Source: Desulfobacteraceae bacterium (lineage in GTDB: Bacteria > Desulfobacterota > Desulfobacteria > Desulfobacterales > Desulfatirhabdiaceae). From it: a stretch of 64,000 nucleotides of DNA. Under the pieces are notes generated by a model. It ran no database searches. It worked only from the letters and a program-made list of their open reading frames with translations, and was not told the origin of the DNA. Made by a program: the position numbers and the translations under genes. The stretch lies in the NCBI GenBank assembly GCA_037439445.1, contig JBBIWB010000011.1:6671-70670 (forward strand), in the 5' to 3' direction. Position 1 is the stretch's first letter. Each line of letters starts with the position of its first letter. Positions 43,061-53,191 of this stretch are shown here, in pieces.

Positions 43061-43765
43061 ATGTCTGTTTCAGCTATCATAGTTGCAGGTGGAAAAGGTT
43101 TCCGGATGGGCTCTGCCGTCAGCAAGCAATATATTGTGATTGCAGGCAAGCCTATTTTGCACCATACACTTGAAATATTCGATTCCTGTTCCTGTATTGA
43201 TGATATTTTTGTGGTTCTTCCTGCAGAAGACATGAACTGTTTTGAAAGACTCATTCCTCAAAAAACATTCAACAAAAAAATCCATCCTGTCAAGGGAGGG
43301 AAGGAGCGTCAAGATTCTGTTTATAACGGGATAATGGCAGTTCCTTACAAGAAATCACATGTAGTGATCCATGATGCAGTGCGACCTTTTGTAAGCCCTG
43401 GCATCATAACTGAATGTGTAAACAACGCTATCATTTCAGGAGCTTGTGTTGTCGGAGTCCCTGCTGTGGATACATTAAAACAGGTAAGTACTGCCGGTCA
43501 TATAGTCAATACAATCGATAGGGGCAGTATTTGGATGGCTCAAACCCCCCAGGTTTTTGATATTGACCTCATAAGGTATGCACATGAGAAGGCAAAAGAA
43601 GATAATGTTGCAGGAACAGATGATGCCATGCTGGTTGAGAGGATAGGCCGCAAAGTTAATATAATAGCAGGTACGAGATTAAATTTAAAAATTACAACAC
43701 CTGAAGATATATTATTTGCAGAGGCTTTATTTAAGAATCTTGAAAAAGCGAGGTCTCATTCATGA
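43061..43765 (+). CDS. ispD: 2-C-methyl-D-erythritol 4-phosphate cytidylyltransferase
   Basis: Contains IIVAGGKGFRMG..SKQY, VHDAVRPF, Q(T)PQ.F and TDDA motifs. Confidence 0.9.
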   Translation: MSVSAIIVAGGKGFRMGSAVSKQYIVIAGKPILHHTLEIFDSCSCIDDIFVVLPAEDMNCFERLIPQKTFNKKIHPVKGGKERQDSVYNGIMAVPYKKSHVVIHDAVRPFVSPGIITECVNNAIISGACVVGVPAVDTLKQVSTAGHIVNTIDRGSIWMAQTPQVFDIDLIRYAHEKAKEDNVAGTDDAMLVERIGRKVNIIAGTRLNLKITTPEDILFAEALFKNLEKARSHS

Positions 43766-45378
43766 ATCATACTGATATCAACCCGGACTCAAAGCAGCAA
43801 GACGATTTTATCAAAGACCTGAAAGCAACATTTGCAAAGATGCCAAATGATATCGATCTTATGCTATTTACCCAACAAGGCAGAGACGATGTGTTTGCAG
43901 AAGGTTGCAGGCAGATTGTAAGGGCTTTTCGGGAGCTGACGAATAGAATTCATTTCCGGGAATACGGCATGGATCATGAGATGGCGGTAAAATGGGAAAT
44001 TGAACACTCTCCAACCCTTCTGATAGCTCCTGAAAGATACAATATAAGGTGGATAGGCGCTCCGCTTGGTGAAGAAGTCAGAACATTTCTTGAAATCATG
44101 TTGATGGCAGGCTCAGGTAACAGCAATCTAAGCGATCAGTCCAGAAGAGTGCTGGAAAAGATTGATTCACCCCGTCAGATCAAGGTATTTGTTAGCCCGA
44201 CATGCCCTTATTGTCCTCAGGAAGCTGTTAATGCAGCAAGGGCTGTGATTGAAAAGCCCGGTCTCTTTTCTCTTGAAATCATAGATATACAGTGCAAACC
44301 TGAAATAGCAAGCCGGTATTCGGCAGAAAGTGTTCCACAGGCTTTTGCAAATGATGTACTGATAGGTTTGGGGGCTCAGCCTGAAGAAGTATTTGCGATA
44401 TCACTTGGCAAACTGGAGCCTCAGACGATATTTATTCCTGACAGCGATGCTGAGCTTGTTGAAGCTGATCTTCTCATCGCAGGAGGAGGGCCTGCAGGGC
44501 TTACTGCTGGAATTTATGCAGTAAGAAGTGGACTTAGTACTGTAATAATTGAACGCAATGCCCTTGGAGGGCAGGTGGCAACAACCCCTGTTGTTGAAAA
44601 CTACCCCGGATTCAAGCAGATCCCTGGGAAGACCCTTGTCGATATAATGGTTTCCCATGCTATTCAATATGTTCAGATTTTTCAGGGGGAAGAAGTCCTT
44701 GATGTTGTAATCGGCAAGCCTTTTGAAGTTATCACAAGCAGGCGACGGTTCAGGGTCAAGAGCATTCTTCTTGCAACAGGAGCAAACCATAAGCATTTGA
44801 ATGTTCCTGGTGAATCAAGGCTTTCAGGCAGAGGTGTAAGCTATTGCAGCACCTGCGATGGACCGCTTTTCAAGAACAGAAGGGTTGTAATGGTAGGAGG
44901 TGGAAACTCTGCAGTAACAGAAGCTCTTCACCTACACAATATGGGTGTCAAGGTAACTCTTGTCCACCGCAGAGACAGACTGCGTGCCCAGGATTTTCTG
45001 GTAAAACAGCTTGAATCAAGCGGTATTCCAGTTTTATTGAATTCTGAAATATCGGAAATTCTGGGTAAGAACAGGGTGGAGTCTGTAAAGCTGAGAAATA
45101 CTCTGGATAATAAGAGCTCTGATTTTTCAGTCGAAGGTGTTTTTATTGCTATAGGGTATGAACCTAGTGTTGATCTTGCCAGAAAAATCGGTGTTGCACT
45201 TACTCCTGATGGCTTTATTGAAAAGGATGAAAAGCATAGAACGAGTATTGCAGGAATCTATTCTGCAGGAGATGTTGAAGGAGGATACAAGCAGATAGTG
45301 ACTGCGGCAGGCCAGGGTTCAGAAGCAGCCATGTCCATTTTCGAGGATATAATTAATCCTTACTGGAACAGGGGCTGA
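43762..45378 (+). CDS. AhpF-like fusion: double thioredoxin-fold (PDO/glutaredoxin-like, CPYC) N-domain plus thioredoxin-disulfide reductase
   Basis: N-domain FVSPTCPYCPQ. The flavoprotein part has IAGGGPAGLTAG, the redox CSTCDG, GGGNSAVTEA and GDV motifs. 4-nt overlap with ispD. Confidence 0.85.
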   Translation: MNHTDINPDSKQQDDFIKDLKATFAKMPNDIDLMLFTQQGRDDVFAEGCRQIVRAFRELTNRIHFREYGMDHEMAVKWEIEHSPTLLIAPERYNIRWIGAPLGEEVRTFLEIMLMAGSGNSNLSDQSRRVLEKIDSPRQIKVFVSPTCPYCPQEAVNAARAVIEKPGLFSLEIIDIQCKPEIASRYSAESVPQAFANDVLIGLGAQPEEVFAISLGKLEPQTIFIPDSDAELVEADLLIAGGGPAGLTAGIYAVRSGLSTVIIERNALGGQVATTPVVENYPGFKQIPGKTLVDIMVSHAIQYVQIFQGEEVLDVVIGKPFEVITSRRRFRVKSILLATGANHKHLNVPGESRLSGRGVSYCSTCDGPLFKNRRVVMVGGGNSAVTEALHLHNMGVKVTLVHRRDRLRAQDFLVKQLESSGIPVLLNSEISEILGKNRVESVKLRNTLDNKSSDFSVEGVFIAIGYEPSVDLARKIGVALTPDGFIEKDEKHRTSIAGIYSAGDVEGGYKQIVTAAGQGSEAAMSIFEDIINPYWNRG

Positions 45379-46704: not shown

Positions 46705-46837
46705 AACTGCTGTATCCTTGATTTCAAACTAGTGTCTATCTTCTTCCTGCCTGCCTAACTATGACAAAATAAAAAAGTATGGGCAATTTTCTGAATCACC
46801 ATGGATAACTTGGTGAGAAAATCCATTTCCATTTTGT

Positions 46838-47359
46838 TCAGGTTTCCTGATGAATCTTCTGCATCCTGATCCCGGAATAAACAGCCCTGCAAATACCGCT
46901 TACACCGCCTTTGAGTCCTTCAGGGTTTTTGAAACCCTCGCTGCTCTGCAGGCTTGCCATGTAAGCAGTGGAGTCCTGAAGGTTCTCATAAGTCATACCG
47001 GCATGACCTCTGGGAGTTATTGCAAAAAGCCAGCCCCTGCTGTAAGTATCCTTGTTGATTAGCTCAGTATCTGCTCTGACTTCTGCATTGAAGTGAATGA
47101 CACCTTGAACAGGGGCATCAATGTAGAGAATCTTGCCAGTGATGGCAAAGAGTATGCACTGGTTCTGCTCAACAGTTTCTCCTTCTTCAGTAAGAAAGTT
47201 AAGTTCTTGAACTCCACCGGAAAGAACAATCGCAGGTTCGGAAAGACCAAAGAAGATGGCTTTCTTGTCCAGTCTTGCCCATAGTCCATGTTTTAATGAA
47301 TAACGGAGATTATCAGGGATAGTCACCCGATGCCCAAGAAATTTATCAATTACTGCCAT
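46838..47359 (-). CDS. GcvH-like (lipoyl/biotinyl hybrid-barrel) protein with ~45-aa C-terminal extension
   Basis: LRYSLKHGLWARLD...FFGLSEPAIVLSGGVQELNF...GETVEQNQCILFAITGKILYIDAPVQG follows the GcvH pattern (Y...HEW....VGIT..A...G.I...LP..G......VES.K....YAP.SG). AAGGAG RBS. Confidence 0.65.
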   Translation of the reverse strand: MAVIDKFLGHRVTIPDNLRYSLKHGLWARLDKKAIFFGLSEPAIVLSGGVQELNFLTEEGETVEQNQCILFAITGKILYIDAPVQGVIHFNAEVRADTELINKDTYSRGWLFAITPRGHAGMTYENLQDSTAYMASLQSSEGFKNPEGLKGGVSGICRAVYSGIRMQKIHQET

Positions 47360-47430
47360 TGCTTCTCCTTTAGTGCTAACCTCGGTTTTTTGACTATTTT
47401 AGGAATAAAAAACGAAGAAACAAAAGTCTT

Positions 47431-47763
47431 TCAGTGCTTTGATGCTCGCTTAGGGGAGAAAATCTTATCCCAAAGCCCCTTCTTTTTCGGCCCAGCAATT
47501 TTCAGGTGCCGGCAGATGGAATTTTCAATCCTGTCCTGTGAAATACCGGCACCTTCAACCACTATCTCATCAGCGACCATTACTGCAGGTGCAACAGGCA
47601 GATTCAGTTCAAAGTATTCATCATTCTGATATTCAGCGACTGGTTTGGACGTGATTTCGATATCTATATCCTTGTATCTTTTGCCCAGACCGGGCATCAT
47701 TTTCAGAAAATTCTTTCACGGCTTTCCATTAGGTTCATTCAGGAAAAATCTCACCTTCAGCAT
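47431..47763 (-). CDS. Small Trx-fold protein (redox-active disulfide protein 2 / Thioredoxin_3-like), candidate selenoprotein with in-frame TGA at codon 16
   Basis: The ATG at 47763 lies 6-7 nt after AAGGAG and 15 nt after the upstream gene's stop. Its frame reads MLKVRFFLNEPNGKP-TGA-KNFLKMMPGLGK... and is continuous with the 89-aa track ORF. The TGA (47716-47718) falls at the C-terminal Cys position of a Trx-fold CxxC site, and a hairpin lies downstream. Confidence 0.6.
47682..47696 (-). promoter_or_regulatory. SECIS-like stem-loop downstream of the in-frame UGA of the Trx-fold gene
   Basis: The mRNA reads U-GCCC-GGUCU-GGGC-A. The loop begins about 24 nt after the UGA. The GGUCU apical loop resembles the E. 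coli fdhF SECIS loop as I remember it. Confidence 0.45.
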
Positions 47764-47778
47764 TTTTTTCTCCTTTTT

Positions 47779-49530
47779 TTAGCTGCCTGTTTTCTTAAGC
47801 TCAGTCATACGGCCAATGAACTGATCCGGAGGGAGGTAATCCACCAGGCGCAGCTCCTGCTTTTCAATGCCGTCAGCATCCAAAAATACTATGGTTGGAA
47901 GGCCTTTGACTTGGTATTGCTGAAGCAGGCTGTCATTCAACGAATTCCCTCCGGTTGTGACATCAACTTTAATCATGACAAAGTCAGTATCAGCAAGCTT
48001 TACGACCATAGGATCGTGAAAAGTTACTTCTTCGATCTCAACGCATGCTGCGCACCATGAGGCATAGAAATCGATGATTACAGGCTTTTTAAGGTTTCTG
48101 GCCTCTTTAAGTGTTTCCTCTGAATAAGATTTCCAGTCAACTCCTTGTCCCTTCAAGGCCGATGATGTGATGATGACAGTGACCAAAACCAGACATGCTA
48201 TCCCTGCTGCGCCCTTAAGCAAGGGAAATGCCCTGAAGCTGGCACTGCTCTTGTCGATCCATCCAAGGTGTAAACCAGCAGCAAGTATGGCAAGGGCAAA
48301 CAGAAAGGTTCCAATGTGGCCGGGAAGAACTGGCCTTATGAAATGAACGGCCATTGCAACCAGAATCCAGCCCATGAGTTTTCTTACCCAGAGCATCCAA
48401 TCACCCGAGCGGGGCAGTTTTTTCAGTTGTCCGGAGAACAAGGCAAGGAAAAAGAGGGGCAGTCCCAGTCCAAGGCTCAGGGTAAAAAATATCACAAATC
48501 CGAGCCAGGGGCTTCCCATGCTTGCCACCCAGGTCAAAAGCCCCAGTACGAAAGGTCCGATGCAAGGGGCTGCTATCACTCCGAGGGTCAGCCCCATGAA
48601 GAGGCTTCCAAAGTAGCCAGTATATGATTTTGCAGCAGCCTGCGTAAGTCCGCTCGGAAGGTGCATTTCCCAAAACCCGAAGAGGCTTGTTGCAAAAAAG
48701 ACAAGAACCAACGCCACTACAATCAGGACAAAGGGATTCCGGAGCATCGATCCCATGAGGCCTCCTGTGAGCGAGGCTATTACCCCGAGTAAGGAGTTTG
48801 TAACCGAAAGACCCATAACGTAGCACAAACCGTGTGTTGCTAGCTTTCCATGTCCTTCTCCTTCCTTTGCAGCGTGGCCGCCGAAATAGGATATGGTAAT
48901 GGGAATAAGAGGGTAGATACAGGGGGTGAGGTTCAGGGCAATGCCGCCGACAAAAATACCAAGGAGTGTCAGGATCATTGCCCAGCCATAGAGCTGTCCA
49001 TATGCACTTGGAGATTCTATTGTCTTAGCCAGTCCTGCAGGAGTGCTGTCAACCGGCAGTCCCAGACTCTGCCATTCAGGAAAGCCGTATGGATCACGGT
49101 AGACGTTTTTATATCCGAGTTTTACAGCCACACGGGCTGCCGAGTCGCTGCGGGCTCAACTGAGACCCGCTCAATAGAAGATGACTGTGCGCTCCTTGTC
49201 CTGTCCCAGGATATTTTCAAGTGCCGAAGCCTTGTGCCATCTCGACCAGCCTGTTGGCTCCATGGGAAAGTTTACCGCACCCCTGATATGCCCTGTCCGG
49301 TATTCCCATTCCTGGCGGGTGTCCACCAGAAGAAGGCTGTCTGCATCTTTTTTATGGAGCTCCATGAGAGCTTCTGTGGTGATAATAGCATAGCCCCCGT
49401 TTTTGCCTTCGGTTAAAACATCGTCCCATGTGGATTGTCTGGGTGTAACTGCGCGATTTGTTAGCCACAGAGCTCCAACCGTCAGAAATATTGCCGCAAT
49501 AGCTATCAATGTCGTTTTTCTGTTCTGCAT
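47779..49530 (-). CDS. Signal-anchored rhodanese :: DsbD/CcdA transmembrane domain :: thioredoxin fusion, candidate selenoprotein with two in-frame TGA codons in the rhodanese active-site loop
   Basis: Track ORFs 49171..49530 and 47779..49131 are in the same frame and are separated only by TGA (49171-49173) and TGA (49156-49158). Read-through gives ...ERTVIFY-U-AGLS-U-ARSDSAARVAVKLGYKNVYRDPYGFPEW, a complete rhodanese domain. This is followed by 8 TM helices with LNLTPCIYP and IAAPCIGP, then FYASWCAAC. Confidence 0.6.
49125..49170 (-). promoter_or_regulatory. Stem-loops downstream of the rhodanese in-frame UGA codons (SECIS candidates)
   Basis: The mRNA hairpin GCGGG(U)CUC-AGUU-GAG-CCCGC (49150-49170) starts right after UGA-1 and contains UGA-2. 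A second hairpin, CAGCC-CGUGU-GGCUG (49125-49139), has its loop 21 nt after UGA-2 and 36 nt after UGA-1. Confidence 0.4.
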
Positions 49531-49566
49531 TATAAATCCTGTCCTGTCAAAAAAACTGTTCAGGTT

Positions 49567-49827
49567 CTATACTTTTCCTTCACGACTCAGTTTTGAAAGG
49601 AGAAACGTTGTCCCCCTCAGAGAAAGCCCTGTCTTTTCTGCGAGCTCTCCCGGATTGAGATGGCCGTGTTTTCTTAAGAGTGATATGAATTCATCTTCTA
49701 TTCCCCACAGAAACTCAGAACGCGTCTGATCACCCAGAGTCAGGAATAGCGTTTTCAATGCCATGGATATTTCATTAAGCGCTTCTTCAGGGTCCATGCT
49801 TCCAATTATTTTCTGAATCTCTTCCAT
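49567..49827 (-). CDS. Small hypothetical protein with HTH-like C-terminus
   Basis: 86 aa. The segment HLNPGELAEKTGLSLRGTTFLLSKLSREGKV looks like the HTH of ArsR/MarR-type winged-helix proteins, but the protein ends before a wing. Confidence 0.4.
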   Translation of the reverse strand: MEEIQKIIGSMDPEEALNEISMALKTLFLTLGDQTRSEFLWGIEDEFISLLRKHGHLNPGELAEKTGLSLRGTTFLLSKLSREGKV

Positions 49828-49851
49828 GCGGTTCAGAACCCTCTCTTATTC

Positions 49852-50184
49852 TCAAAAAGTTTTTCTTGCATTTAACAGGTCTGTTGCCATGGTGTTCAAC
49901 GTTTTAACTACATCAAGAATTCTATGATCTACCAATTCATAATAGATGAAGGGGCCATTTCGTTCAATATTCACCAGGAGTGAACGCTTGAGTTCCTTCA
50001 GGTGATGAGAAACAAGAGGCTGAGAGAGGCCGAGCTCCTCAACTATGCCTGAAACGGATTTCTTGCCGTTGCTCACACACAGTATTATCCTCAAGCGATT
50101 TTCATCAGAAAGGCTTTTTGCCAGAAAAGCAACTTTCTGAAAATGCTCATTGCACATCACCATTTCCTCCTGCTCAAAAAGCAT
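49852..50184 (-). CDS. ArsR/SmtB-family transcriptional regulator
   Basis: The pattern LSDENRLRIILCV...KSVSGIVEELGLSQPLVSHHLKELK...LV is the classic ArsR HTH. Confidence 0.85.
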   Translation of the reverse strand: MLFEQEEMVMCNEHFQKVAFLAKSLSDENRLRIILCVSNGKKSVSGIVEELGLSQPLVSHHLKELKRSLLVNIERNGPFIYYELVDHRILDVVKTLNTMATDLLNARKTF

Positions 50185-50261
50185 TCATCGCTCATTCCTG
50201 TTAAATCAATGCGGTTAAAGGCTTTACTCTGGATATTTTTCAGAAGGCATTCATCCAATAA

Positions 50262-50301
50262 ATGAAATAATATATTAATGAATATTTATATGTTATTTCA
50301 T
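50262..50301. promoter_or_regulatory. AT-rich inverted repeat upstream of the ArsR-led operon (candidate operator)
   Basis: ATGAAATAA (50262-50270) and TTATTTCAT (50293-50301) are perfect reverse complements. The spacer contains AATAT...ATATT symmetry. The repeat lies about 80-115 nt upstream of the ArsR start. Confidence 0.3.
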
Positions 50302-50532: not shown

Positions 50533-51183
50533 TCATAGGCTTTTCTGCAATGCCTTTGCAAAAGCAAGTGAGAGATCAGTGCTTGGATTATTTGACATGT
50601 ATTCTTTCAGGCCTGTTATATCGTCAATATCTGACATCTCAGGAAGGCATCCGTAATCTATACCCAGAAAGCTGGCTGTTCTTACAGTTTCTGTAAACAC
50701 TGTATCAGTACCCCAGGCAATGCCTTCAAACAGCTCGGGGTGAAACACGGACAAACCGACGAGATAGTATCCACCGTCAGAGGAAGGACCGAGCACAAGT
50801 TCAAAGTGTCCAAGAAGATCAAAAGCCTGTAATATGTCTGAAGATGAAATACCAGGACAATCCGTCCCTGTTAAGCATATCCTTGTGTATCCGCGGGCAA
50901 ATTCAGATTTAAAAGCCGCCGAAATTCTCTTGCCGAGATCCCCTTCCGGTTGATTCCTAATAACTGCAGAAGGCAGTATTGCCTCGAAGAACGCCAAGCT
51001 GCTTTCAGGTGTCTTGTATATAACAATATCGTAATGAGGCCAAGTCACCCCATCTATAACGTGATGAAGGATTAGATCATAGAGCAAGGCTGCTTTCTGA
51101 AAGCCGACATCTTTTGCAAGCCTTGTCTTAACCAGCCCTGGAACAGGTTCTCTTGCAAAAATAAGGAGAAGATCATTTTTCAT
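50533..51183 (-). CDS. DUF2064 / TIGR04282-type nucleotidyl/glycosyl-transferase-like protein (rSAM/selenodomain- or arsenosugar-associated 'transferase 1')
   Basis: The N-terminus LLLIFAREPVPGLVKTRLAKDVG is the DUF2064 hallmark. 4-nt overlap with the upstream GT2 gene. Confidence 0.8.
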   Translation of the reverse strand: MKNDLLLIFAREPVPGLVKTRLAKDVGFQKAALLYDLILHHVIDGVTWPHYDIVIYKTPESSLAFFEAILPSAVIRNQPEGDLGKRISAAFKSEFARGYTRICLTGTDCPGISSSDILQAFDLLGHFELVLGPSSDGGYYLVGLSVFHPELFEGIAWGTDTVFTETVRTASFLGIDYGCLPEMSDIDDITGLKEYMSNNPSTDLSLAFAKALQKSL

Positions 51184-51869
51184 CTTATATCCCTGTAAAG
51201 TCCTGCAAGATAATCAGGTGATACACCCAGCCTGAACAAGGAAGGTATTGCCAGCATCAGCAAAGTTGCGGTTATGATTCCATGCTTAAAGCGCCTGTAG
51301 GAAACATCAACAGTCTGTCTGGAATAGTATATTTTACCGATCCCAGATATTTTTCTTGAAAACTCAAAATCTTCCATTATGGGTATTTCCGGAAAACCTC
51401 TAACAGATTCAAAGGCTCTTTTTTCCACAAAGATTGCCTGATCGCCGTACATGTTTTTTGCATAACTGGATCGCAAACTGGACAAAAAGGCAAAAAAACG
51501 CTCATGTCTTCCGAGAGTTTCATGTCTGCCGCATCTGATCCTGAATCCGCCTGCGACACAGCCACTTTCAATTGCCTTCTCGACCTCTTTTTTCCATCCC
51601 TCAGGAAGTTCAGCATCGGCATGCAGGAACAAAAGAACATCGCCTTTTGCAAAAGAAGCTCCAAAATTCATCTGGACTCCTCTGCCCTTACTTGGAGACT
51701 GCAGAAGCATCACGTCTCCATGAGCCTCTATGATGCAGGCAGTCCGGTCAGAGCTTCTGCAGTCAACAGCTATAACTTCGGTCTCGGGGTCTGTTACTGC
51801 CGCAAGACGTCTAAGCTGTTCTTCTATTATCTTTTCTTCGTTGTAAACTGGTATTATTATAGAGACCAT
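51180..51869 (-). CDS. GT2 glycosyltransferase, TIGR04283-type (rSAM/selenodomain- or arsenosugar-associated 'transferase 2')
   Basis: Contains VSIIIPVYNEE, VIAVDCRSSDRT and LFLHADAELP. Located immediately downstream of the radical SAM gene. Confidence 0.8.
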   Translation of the reverse strand: MVSIIIPVYNEEKIIEEQLRRLAAVTDPETEVIAVDCRSSDRTACIIEAHGDVMLLQSPSKGRGVQMNFGASFAKGDVLLFLHADAELPEGWKKEVEKAIESGCVAGGFRIRCGRHETLGRHERFFAFLSSLRSSYAKNMYGDQAIFVEKRAFESVRGFPEIPIMEDFEFSRKISGIGKIYYSRQTVDVSYRRFKHGIITATLLMLAIPSLFRLGVSPDYLAGLYRDIR

Positions 51870-51873
51870 CAAA

Positions 51874-52854
51874 CTATTCCAGCGATCCCTGGCATGACGA
51901 ACCAGTGCCTGCTGTACATCCGTAGCAATGGTTATGGAGCACTATAGGGCGGTTTCCAAGCTGTTTTAAGTCAAAATTTTCTATATGTCCGGAGGAGGAT
52001 ACTCTAAGACCAAGCATTTGGTTAAAATCGCAGTCATGTAAGGTTCCGTCCCAGGCCACCGAAACCGTTGTTCTGCACATCACGCTTTTAAGTGTATCGG
52101 GATTGAAAGCATCAGTTAATGTCTGCATGTATTCGTCATAATTGCCTGAAGCAAGAAGAAAATCAAGATATCTGCCAACTGGCATGTTGTTCAGGCAATA
52201 GAGTGTATTGAAATCAATGCCGTGAAATTTCCAGAGCCTTGTGCGGTAATCCTGCTCAAGGCTCTTCTGGGAAGCAGGCAGATACGCACCTACCGGGTTA
52301 TGAACGAGGTTGAATAGAAGTCCGGTTCCTGGCTTTGCGTATCCCATTGAGTTAAGCCTTTTGGCAACCCGGATAAATTTTCTGAAGAAACCAGCGCCTC
52401 GCTGGCGGTCGGCTCTTGACTCGTTGCAGTCCGGCAGAGAAGACACGATCTCAATGCCGTTATCAGCGTAGATATTGGCGTAATCAGCGTAATCTTCATC
52501 TTCAAGTATGACCAGGTTTGATCTCACAATCAGGCGGCGCCCCAGCTTTGCTGCCTCCTTAATGAAGACCTTGATACCGGAATTCATCTCAGGGGCTCCG
52601 CCTGTTATATCTATCGTGGTGATTGTTCTGTTTCCCCTTATAACTTCGAGACACAGTTCCAGAACGTCTCCTGGCATCATCTCTTTTCTCTCATTGCCTG
52701 CTTCGACATGGCAGTGTTTGCAGGATAGGTTGCAGCGCTTCCCGACATTTAACTGAAGTATTTCCACTCCTGATGCAAACATTGGCCCGTGCAGTTTTCT
52801 GTTGAAACTTGTATTATATTTTTCGAGCACGGCGAGTTGATAGTTGTCCTGCAT
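51874..52854 (-). CDS. Radical SAM / Cys-rich C-terminal domain protein (ArsS-type, TIGR04167-like)
   Basis: Radical SAM cluster motif GKRCNLSCKHCHVEAG. C-terminal Cys-rich tail NHCYGCTAGTGSSCQG. In some members of this family the tail Cys positions are selenocysteine (recalled family description). Confidence 0.85.
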   Translation of the reverse strand: MQDNYQLAVLEKYNTSFNRKLHGPMFASGVEILQLNVGKRCNLSCKHCHVEAGNERKEMMPGDVLELCLEVIRGNRTITTIDITGGAPEMNSGIKVFIKEAAKLGRRLIVRSNLVILEDEDYADYANIYADNGIEIVSSLPDCNESRADRQRGAGFFRKFIRVAKRLNSMGYAKPGTGLLFNLVHNPVGAYLPASQKSLEQDYRTRLWKFHGIDFNTLYCLNNMPVGRYLDFLLASGNYDEYMQTLTDAFNPDTLKSVMCRTTVSVAWDGTLHDCDFNQMLGLRVSSSGHIENFDLKQLGNRPIVLHNHCYGCTAGTGSSCQGSLE

Positions 52855-52855
52855 A

Positions 52856-53191
52856 TTACAAGGCCTTTTTCTTGATTATCTTTCTCATCTGTGTCGAGTG
52901 GGCGAGTGTAATGCCTGCCATCATGGCAGCACCAACATGCACGGCTTCCATCATTTCATCTTCTCCTATCCCAAGAGAAAGGCACTTGTTGGTATAGGCG
53001 TCGATACAGTAAGGACAGCTCTGTGTCATGGCAACGGCTATGGCTATAAGCGCCTTTTCGCGTTCGTTCAGCTTCCCTGCTGAAGTTGATGCCATGTAAT
53101 AATCGAAAAACTTATGTCCCTGTTCCTTGGCATATTCGGTTATGTTTGGAAAATCAGCAAGATCCCCGGGTTCATAATAATTTTGCTTCAT
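52856..53191 (-). CDS. Carboxymuconolactone decarboxylase (AhpD-like) family peroxidase-like protein
   Basis: 111 aa with the CMD-family redox motif QSCPYCIDAY. It abuts the radical SAM gene with a 1-nt gap. Confidence 0.85.
   Translation of the reverse strand: MKQNYYEPGDLADFPNITEYAKEQGHKFFDYYMASTSAGKLNEREKALIAIAVAMTQSCPYCIDAYTNKCLSLGIGEDEMMEAVHVGAAMMAGITLAHSTQMRKIIKKKAL

Follow-up and report, generated by a model that had tools for sequence, protein, structure and literature searches.

The 64,000-nucleotide (nt) stretch of Desulfobacteraceae DNA analysed here, hereafter the window, carries on its minus strand, at 47431..47763, a small gene that begins just behind the gene for a rhodanese/DsbD-fusion-like protein, tsoB. 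This small gene is in all likelihood tsoC, with 110 codons plus a terminator, encoding a small soluble thioredoxin-fold selenoprotein in which the UGA at codon 16 is decoded as selenocysteine (Sec). Its extent was set by translation and by a match to a curated NCBIfam model. The stop codon of tsoB, TAA (47781..47779), is separated from the tsoC ATG at 47763 by a 15-nt spacer, AAAAAGGAGAAAAAA (47764..47778, minus strand), in which the Shine-Dalgarno sequence AAGGAG stands 6 nt 5' of the ATG. From there the frame reads MLKVRFFLNEPNGKP-TGA-KNFLKMMPGLGK and continues to a terminator at 47433..47431, with a single in-frame TGA at 47718..47716 that is read as the Sec codon of the motif NEPNGKP-U on the evidence of the homologue column and its Cys forms. 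An original prediction, made from the nucleotide sequence, had described such a read-through frame with a Shine-Dalgarno sequence and an ATG 15 nt past the stop of the DsbD fusion, and this frame is present on the minus strand as claimed. The mechanical list of open reading frames (ORFs) contains for tsoC only an ORF of 89 amino acids (aa) that starts at the ATG-ATG at 47700; no AGGAG-like site was found 5' of that ATG-ATG, as had also been noted. Since tsoC itself terminates in TGA, this codon keeps its usual meaning of stop here without reassignment of the genetic code, and reading through the internal one therefore requires context-dependent recoding.

tsoC belongs to a curated selenoprotein family

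Translated with Cys for the TGA, the read-through protein obtains 136.4 bits (cut-off 45, E 2.5e-40) from the NCBIfam model NF045708, "NEPxGxxU motif selenoprotein TsoC", with residues 2-88 placed on profile positions 1-86 of 87. NF045708 is an equivalog model, in which membership is given by a whole-protein score over the curated cut-off; the score of the window protein is about three times that cut-off, and the NEPxGxxU motif with its TGA-encoded U is found as FLNEPNGKP-TGA. The window protein resembles the NCBIfam TsoC in its motif (NEPNGKPU), its length, its place directly after tsoB and its operon headed by tsoR, and no difference was seen in the protein itself. The difference lies in the Tso locus, where the TsoA-like ORF lacks the Sec core, so that just three Sec codons in two selenoprotein genes remain. 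When the read-through and 89-aa forms were scanned against Pfam, nothing matched at E <= 1 other than EcpB_C, by chance (E 0.028, under the cut-off).

A 2026 review (PMC13188914) names TsoA (LULAxC), TsoB (UxxxxU), TsoC (GxxU), TsoX and TsoY, and expands Tso as "three selenoprotein operon", which it credits to Haft & Tolstoy 2025 (mSystems 10:e0141724). The tsoC of the window is one more member of a family, from an operon of sulfate-reducing bacteria, that was described, curated and catalogued in 2025, and not a new kind of protein; the selenoprotein call of the original prediction is correct and not new.

The probable Sec codon is conserved and alternates with Cys codons

A protein search with TsoC returned 342 homologues, mostly of 82-90 aa and cut at the Met past the TGA. 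Homologues that span the N-terminus read either NEPNGKP-W-KHF, in which W is the TGA rendered as Trp by the submitters' pipelines (ENA proteins), or NEPNGKP-C-KHF, in which C marks true Cys forms; Cys occupies the Sec column in proteins P0008, P0014, P0033, P0066 and P0083. Among genomes sampled once per species, 371 tsoC loci were detected, of which 80 were fetched and, together with the window, supplied the 87 tsoC copies used for codon counts. All but one of these 80 loci (79/80) are labelled Desulfobacterota or delta-proteobacterial, or more broadly Proteobacteria/Pseudomonadota. At the Sec column, TGA is present in 86 of the 87 copies and TGC in one, a paralogue in locus L063, while four metagenomic homologues have TGT (L081), TGC (L082 and L083) and AGA (L084). 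The check for a Cys/Sec column that had been suggested was thus run, and the column exists, with Cys codons in L063, L081, L082 and L083.

These copies also bear on a competing account, in which the genuine gene is the 89-aa ORF from the ATG-ATG at 47700, and the 15 codons before it, whether untranslated or a separate leader peptide, end at an ordinary UGA stop. Mechanical ORF finding and public gene callers yield exactly this 89-aa product, and the organism does use TGA to stop translation, tsoC itself ending in one, but the strong Shine-Dalgarno sequence stands before the upstream ATG and none before the ATG-ATG. The N-terminal 15 codons are kept as protein in 87/87 copies, with MLKVRFFLNEPNGxP conserved before the TGA, and they vary synonymously; the Pro at -5, for example, is encoded by CCC, CCG, CCT or CCA. 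Such variation with the amino acid kept indicates that the segment before the TGA belongs to the translated sequence of a protein under constraint. The ATG-ATG of the short ORF, in contrast, is not conserved as a start (it is ATT-CTG in L057), and natural Cys-codon homologues fuse the N-terminal residues to the remainder in one ORF. Moreover, the 89-aa product is devoid of strand beta-1 and the active-site turn of the fold predicted for the Cys homologue P0008, a deficiency that had been anticipated. The TGA column, the conserved codons 5' of it and the unconserved starts of the short ORF therefore exclude a separate leader peptide, and a pseudogene as well, and we consider the 89-aa gene very improbable. 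With the leader peptide falls a possibility that the original prediction had named as fatal to it; its central claim, that the selenoprotein gene is complete only if the TGA is decoded, is upheld by the NF045708 match, the conserved N-terminal codons and the Sec/Cys column.

No record exists of the exact 89-aa window protein, and the closest relative departs from it at a single residue. Gene callers split the tsoB of the nearest public relative (L085 / L086: GCA_964412295.1, SRR11582139) into products of 119 aa and 450 aa and give its tsoC a length of 89 aa. That locus is therefore misannotated in public, as had been suspected from the window sequence, and as an annotation check, reading the raw sequence recovers a selenoprotein gene that ordinary gene callers shorten.

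Several copies depart from the common arrangement. L084 (3001-3321), which has AGA (Arg) at the Sec column, retains the downstream hairpin and a tsoB with an intact UxxxxU motif; it could be an inactive copy or result from a point mutation or faulty assembly. The TGC-encoded TsoC of L082 (210-2252) and L083 (1199-3251) lacks the hairpin and does not adjoin TsoB; it follows a membrane protein of about 565 aa with DUF8269 and TauE domains, upstream of which lies a second TsoC-like ORF. A second, more divergent TsoC-like gene stands beside the first in L034, L039, L052, L058 and L063, and also in L018, L024, L057, L073 and L076. An example of this paralogue reads MQKIRFFLNEPNGKS-U-THF, and the paralogue of L063 combines TGC with a broken hairpin.

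A candidate SECIS element downstream of the tsoC TGA

A hairpin resembling a selenocysteine insertion sequence (SECIS), U-GCCC-GGUCU-GGGC-A, was located at 47682..47696 (minus strand) on the basis of fold energy, stem conservation and synonymous constraint, and these are exactly the coordinates at which it had been predicted. Its stem begins 20 nt past the tsoC TGA and its loop, GGUCU, 24 nt past it. Folded alone, the 21-nt stretch with the hairpin reaches -8.2 kcal/mol, a value matched by only 0.37% of the 21-nt segments of the 64 kb, and a comparable hairpin at a similar distance is found for only 2.0% of all TGA triplets in the window. Only the small hairpin stands out in this respect; the 86-nt region around it is not unusually stable as a whole (z = -0.40). 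Within the window sequence alone the hairpin is uncommon, not decisive, and its weight comes from conservation.

Among the TsoC homologues, the commonest form of the hairpin is GCCC-AGGUU-GGGC, and the loop always includes GU or GGU; the GGUCU loop of the window is a minority form, of which only the GGU/GU is conserved. The CCC:GGG core never varies among 63 distinct sequences. In the stem, Pro is encoded by CCC in 85/86 copies, whereas CCC makes up 68, 47, 48, 25 and 4% at five further conserved Pro columns; for Leu only CTG or TTG is used, and for Gly, GGA occurs only beside a preceding ATC (13/13), which preserves a U-A closing pair; the copies in these synonymous-site counts are not phylogenetically independent. 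In a small sample of TGC forms the stem is broken (L063, -2.0; L082, -1.0; L083, -2.1 kcal/mol, against -7 to -8), in each case by amino-acid changes (ACC, or PKLD replacing PRLG). The TGT form, L081, retains the hairpin, which is consistent with a recent change.

A resemblance of the loop to the SECIS of Escherichia coli fdhF had been put forward. Of 5426 E. coli genomes, 5419 have the 46-nt element TGACACGGCCCATCGGTTGCAGGTCTGCACCAATCGGTCGGTAATG within fdhF, and in our reading its apical loop is A-GGUCU, which confirms the likeness. Both elements lie within the coding sequence just past the UGA and have a small apical loop, which in tsoC of the window contains GGUCU and throughout the TsoC family GGU or GU. 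The tsoC hairpin differs in its shorter stem without an evident bulged U and in having no conserved lower stem, which was sought among the homologues by RNAalifold and pair counting and not found. Counted from the U of the UGA, the G-U of the loop falls at about nt 29-30 in tsoC (30-31 in the commonest form) and at about 23-24 in fdhF, as we read its sequence. In position and in its GU-containing loop the tsoC hairpin agrees with bacterial SECIS elements; the bSECISearch program of Zhang and Gladyshev reportedly places the loop G roughly 16-37 nt from the UGA, a range into which it fits. Taken together, the pattern of sequence conservation suggests that the hairpin, with a GGU-containing loop on a CCC:GGG stem, is a candidate bacterial SECIS of tsoC.

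TsoC is predicted to adopt a thioredoxin fold

The natural Cys homologue P0008, which is 65% identical to the window protein, was modelled with AlphaFold2 from an alignment of 27 sequences. The model has a predicted local distance difference test (pLDDT) score of 78.6 and contains strand 2-10, helix 17-29, strand 32-40, two short helices, strands 59-62 and 65-69, and helix 75-86. This beta-alpha-beta-alpha-beta-beta-alpha order is the topology of the thioredoxin fold, and the 50 best Foldseek matches in the PDB were all thioredoxins or thioredoxin-fold proteins (E 2e-3 to 1.6e-2; template modelling score 0.39-0.57), with match probabilities mostly of 0.96-1.00 and one of 0.87. At the sequence level, TsoC gave no match to Thioredoxin_3 (PF13192) or any other thioredoxin-type Pfam family at E <= 1, and a PDB sequence search with the TsoC profile (E <= 10) returned no thioredoxin but weak unrelated matches, for example to ribosomal protein L9. 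The earlier assignment to a thioredoxin fold thus stands by predicted structure only, and its narrower placement near Thioredoxin_3 is not supported by sequence. The likeness claimed to the CPYC site of such proteins likewise failed, as hhalign produced no alignment of TsoC with the protein-disulfide-oxidoreductase/Thioredoxin_3-like domain encoded elsewhere in the window (VFVSPTCPYCP).

In the P0008 model, the Sec/Cys residue stands directly before helix 1. TsoC does not have a CxxC motif at the N-terminus of this helix; its motif is G-K-P-U. An hhalign comparison with human thioredoxin set KP-C/U-KHF on GP-C35-KMI, so that U takes the place of the second Cys of CGPC and Gly13 that of the first, at a probability of 2%. 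This register is the one that had been proposed for U, but with so low a probability and a loop that is the least confident part of the model it is tentative. The proposed cis-Pro region fared better, the invariant Pro of APAVMV lying in the predicted model just before beta-3, at the place of the thioredoxin cis-Pro. The last helix holds a Cys (AICRHL; Cys83 of P0008) that is kept in at least 90% of the homologues and may act as the resolving partner of the selenol, so that the site may not be the unusual single selenol first suggested. TsoC has no hydrophobic segment and is probably soluble. Thioredoxins and TsoC appear alike in fold order, in a redox residue at the N-terminus of helix 1 and in the Pro before beta-3, whereas TsoC departs from them in its G-x-x-U motif in place of CxxC, its longer loop between beta-1 and helix 1, and its lack of a sequence-level Pfam or PDB match.

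Evidence against Sec insertion and alternative explanations

Several observations weigh against a Sec-containing, thioredoxin-fold TsoC that serves TsoB. The hairpin has only 4-5 bp, and its loop lies about 7 nt further from the UGA than that of E. coli fdhF. An Rfam scan of 46800..50300 at E <= 10 gave chance matches only and no SECIS family. RNAalifold and pair counts detected no two-sided covariation, the outer pairs changing on one side only; because the stem is too conserved for two-sided covariation, the case for RNA-level selection rests on synonymous-site statistics. Examination of window genes turned up no selA, selB, selC or selD, and tRNA-Met is the sole transfer RNA (tRNA) gene detected in the window; Sec machinery in the source genome has indirect support only, from the two further conserved in-frame TGAs of tsoB. 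The structural matches from Foldseek are of modest strength (E 2e-3 or weaker, template modelling score about 0.5), and the active-site loop of the P0008 model, residues 11-20, has a mean pLDDT of 61. The putative functional coupling of TsoC and TsoB is drawn from gene adjacency only, and all evidence for Sec insertion in TsoC, here and in the literature reached, is computational.

The apparent lack of Sec machinery among the examined genes, the sole tRNA-Met gene and the short hairpin without an Rfam SECIS match would fit a TGA that is read through by other means, that is, by near-cognate insertion of Trp or Cys or by local stop suppression, the hairpin merely slowing the ribosome. Nevertheless, apart from one AGA, the column alternates with Cys codons only, which is the classical Sec/Cys signature, and tsoB has two conserved TGAs at rhodanese positions that are held by Cys in relatives. 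Furthermore, TsoC and TsoB are curated by NCBI as selenoproteins, and the position of the hairpin and its GU loop fit the bacterial SECIS traits given above. We therefore give read-through without Sec only a slim chance of being correct. A pseudogene whose TGA arose by recent nonsense mutation or by faulty sequencing, as a single in-frame stop in a small ORF resembling a decaying gene might suggest, has practically no chance, being already refuted by a TGA at the same column in 86/87 copies across species and by purifying selection on the codons that flank it.

TsoB, TsoR and a TsoA-like remnant

The gene preceding tsoC, tsoB (47779..49530, minus strand), encodes a rhodanese/DsbD-fusion-like selenoprotein that matches NF045694 at 963.1 bits (cut-off 805), and the N-terminal part of TsoB likewise matches its own curated model. 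Two in-frame TGAs (49173..49171 and 49158..49156, minus strand), five codons apart, place two Sec residues in the rhodanese active-site loop (Y-U-AGLS-U-ARS). The resulting UxxxxU motif is conserved in 64 copies, as is the adjacency of tsoB and tsoC, and related rhodaneses in L006 and L075 have Cys (YCRGPYC) where tsoB has the TGAs. Analysis of 64 homologous segments with RNAfold and RNAalifold revealed a second candidate SECIS, the hairpin GCAGCC-CGUGU-GGCUGU (49124..49140, minus strand), which is conserved and lies 15 nt past the second tsoB TGA; this single hairpin may serve both TGA codons of tsoB. Hydropathy analysis predicts an N-terminal anchor followed by eight transmembrane segments, which would therefore place the rhodanese domain and the C-terminal thioredoxin domain (WCAAC) of TsoB on the same side of the membrane.

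The operon is headed by tsoR (49852..50184, minus strand), encoding an ArsR/SmtB-type metalloregulator (NF045707: 170.7 bits, cut-off 115). Between tsoR and tsoB, tblastn and NF045695 detected a short TsoA-like ORF of 86 aa (49567..49827, minus strand), with a model score of 65.8 bits (cut-off 170) divided over two stretches. It matches only the N-terminal ~40 and the C-terminal ~45 residues of TsoA, and the central ~58 residues with LULAxC are missing in frame. The LULAxC motif was sought in all frames of the window and not found, and since the gaps that separate this ORF from tsoR and tsoB are only 24 and 36 nt, the TsoA core is truly absent. The same 86-aa ORF is present in the metagenome-assembled genome of a close relative (L086 1874-2134); the TsoA matches in other loci all span nearly the full length of TsoA, and the short form occurs in no other fetched locus. 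As judged from its sequence, the 86-aa ORF is a TsoA remnant that lacks the selenocysteine core and a local oddity of this locus, and it bears on which of the "three" selenoproteins the Tso system can do without.

Proposed role of TsoC

In the mechanism that we propose, translation of tsoC would start at the ATG at 47763 behind the Shine-Dalgarno sequence, and the UGA at codon 16 would be decoded as Sec and not as a stop, the hairpin 20 nt downstream probably recruiting SelB with Sec-tRNA(Sec) and so acting as a SECIS. TsoC would then be a cytoplasmic redox partner or carrier for TsoB, and its selenol, which would occupy the position equivalent to CxxC, may act together with the conserved last-helix Cys. 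The diselenol rhodanese and C-terminal thioredoxin domains of TsoB would face the same, by analogy periplasmic, side.

The analogy is with E. coli DsbD, whose alpha and gamma domains lie on the same side of the membrane. Like DsbD, TsoB has the transmembrane domain, in which both cysteines of the PC motifs are present, eight predicted transmembrane segments behind its N-terminal anchor, and a thioredoxin domain with WCAAC at the C-terminus; a small soluble thioredoxin-fold protein is encoded adjacent to it. TsoB differs in having a rhodanese domain with two Sec in place of the N-terminal alpha domain. Compared with the cytoplasmic thioredoxin that donates to DsbD, TsoC would offer one selenol for a dithiol, and electron transfer between TsoC and TsoB is putative. 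A more elaborate scenario, which we hold to be doubtful, is a Tso system that runs without a Sec-containing TsoA, LULAxC having been lost in frame to leave the 86-aa remnant. In it, TsoC, by means of its GxxU selenol and the last-helix Cys, would be the dedicated cytoplasmic donor or carrier to the TsoB membrane domain, and a selenol relay through the membrane would lead to the outer diselenol rhodanese, possibly handling metalloid or reactive sulfur or selenium species sensed by TsoR.

Neighbouring genes

Directly downstream of tsoC lies the gene for a GcvH-related protein (46838..47359, minus strand; NF045810: 237.5 bits, cut-off 150). This gene is a recurrent neighbour, following tsoC in about 20/84 loci and also in L081. 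Its candidate lipoyl-lysine, identified by eye, appears shifted by one position relative to that of E. coli GcvH.

A four-gene cluster of arsenosugar type (50533..53191, minus strand) immediately precedes tsoR in the same orientation and encodes an AhpD-like, peroxidase-like protein (TIGR04169), the radical SAM (seleno)protein ArsS (TIGR04167) and glycosyltransferases TIGR04283 and TIGR04282. The ArsS of the window has no in-frame TGA. A general link between tso and arsenosugar clusters was considered and rejected, as the two are linked in only 2/84 other loci.

On the plus strand, 43762..45378 encodes a 538-aa fusion of the protein-disulfide-oxidoreductase/Thioredoxin_3-like domain (CPYC) with a thioredoxin reductase, a possible source of electrons for the Tso system. 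A homologue of this fusion is found within 6 kb of tsoC in nine other loci.

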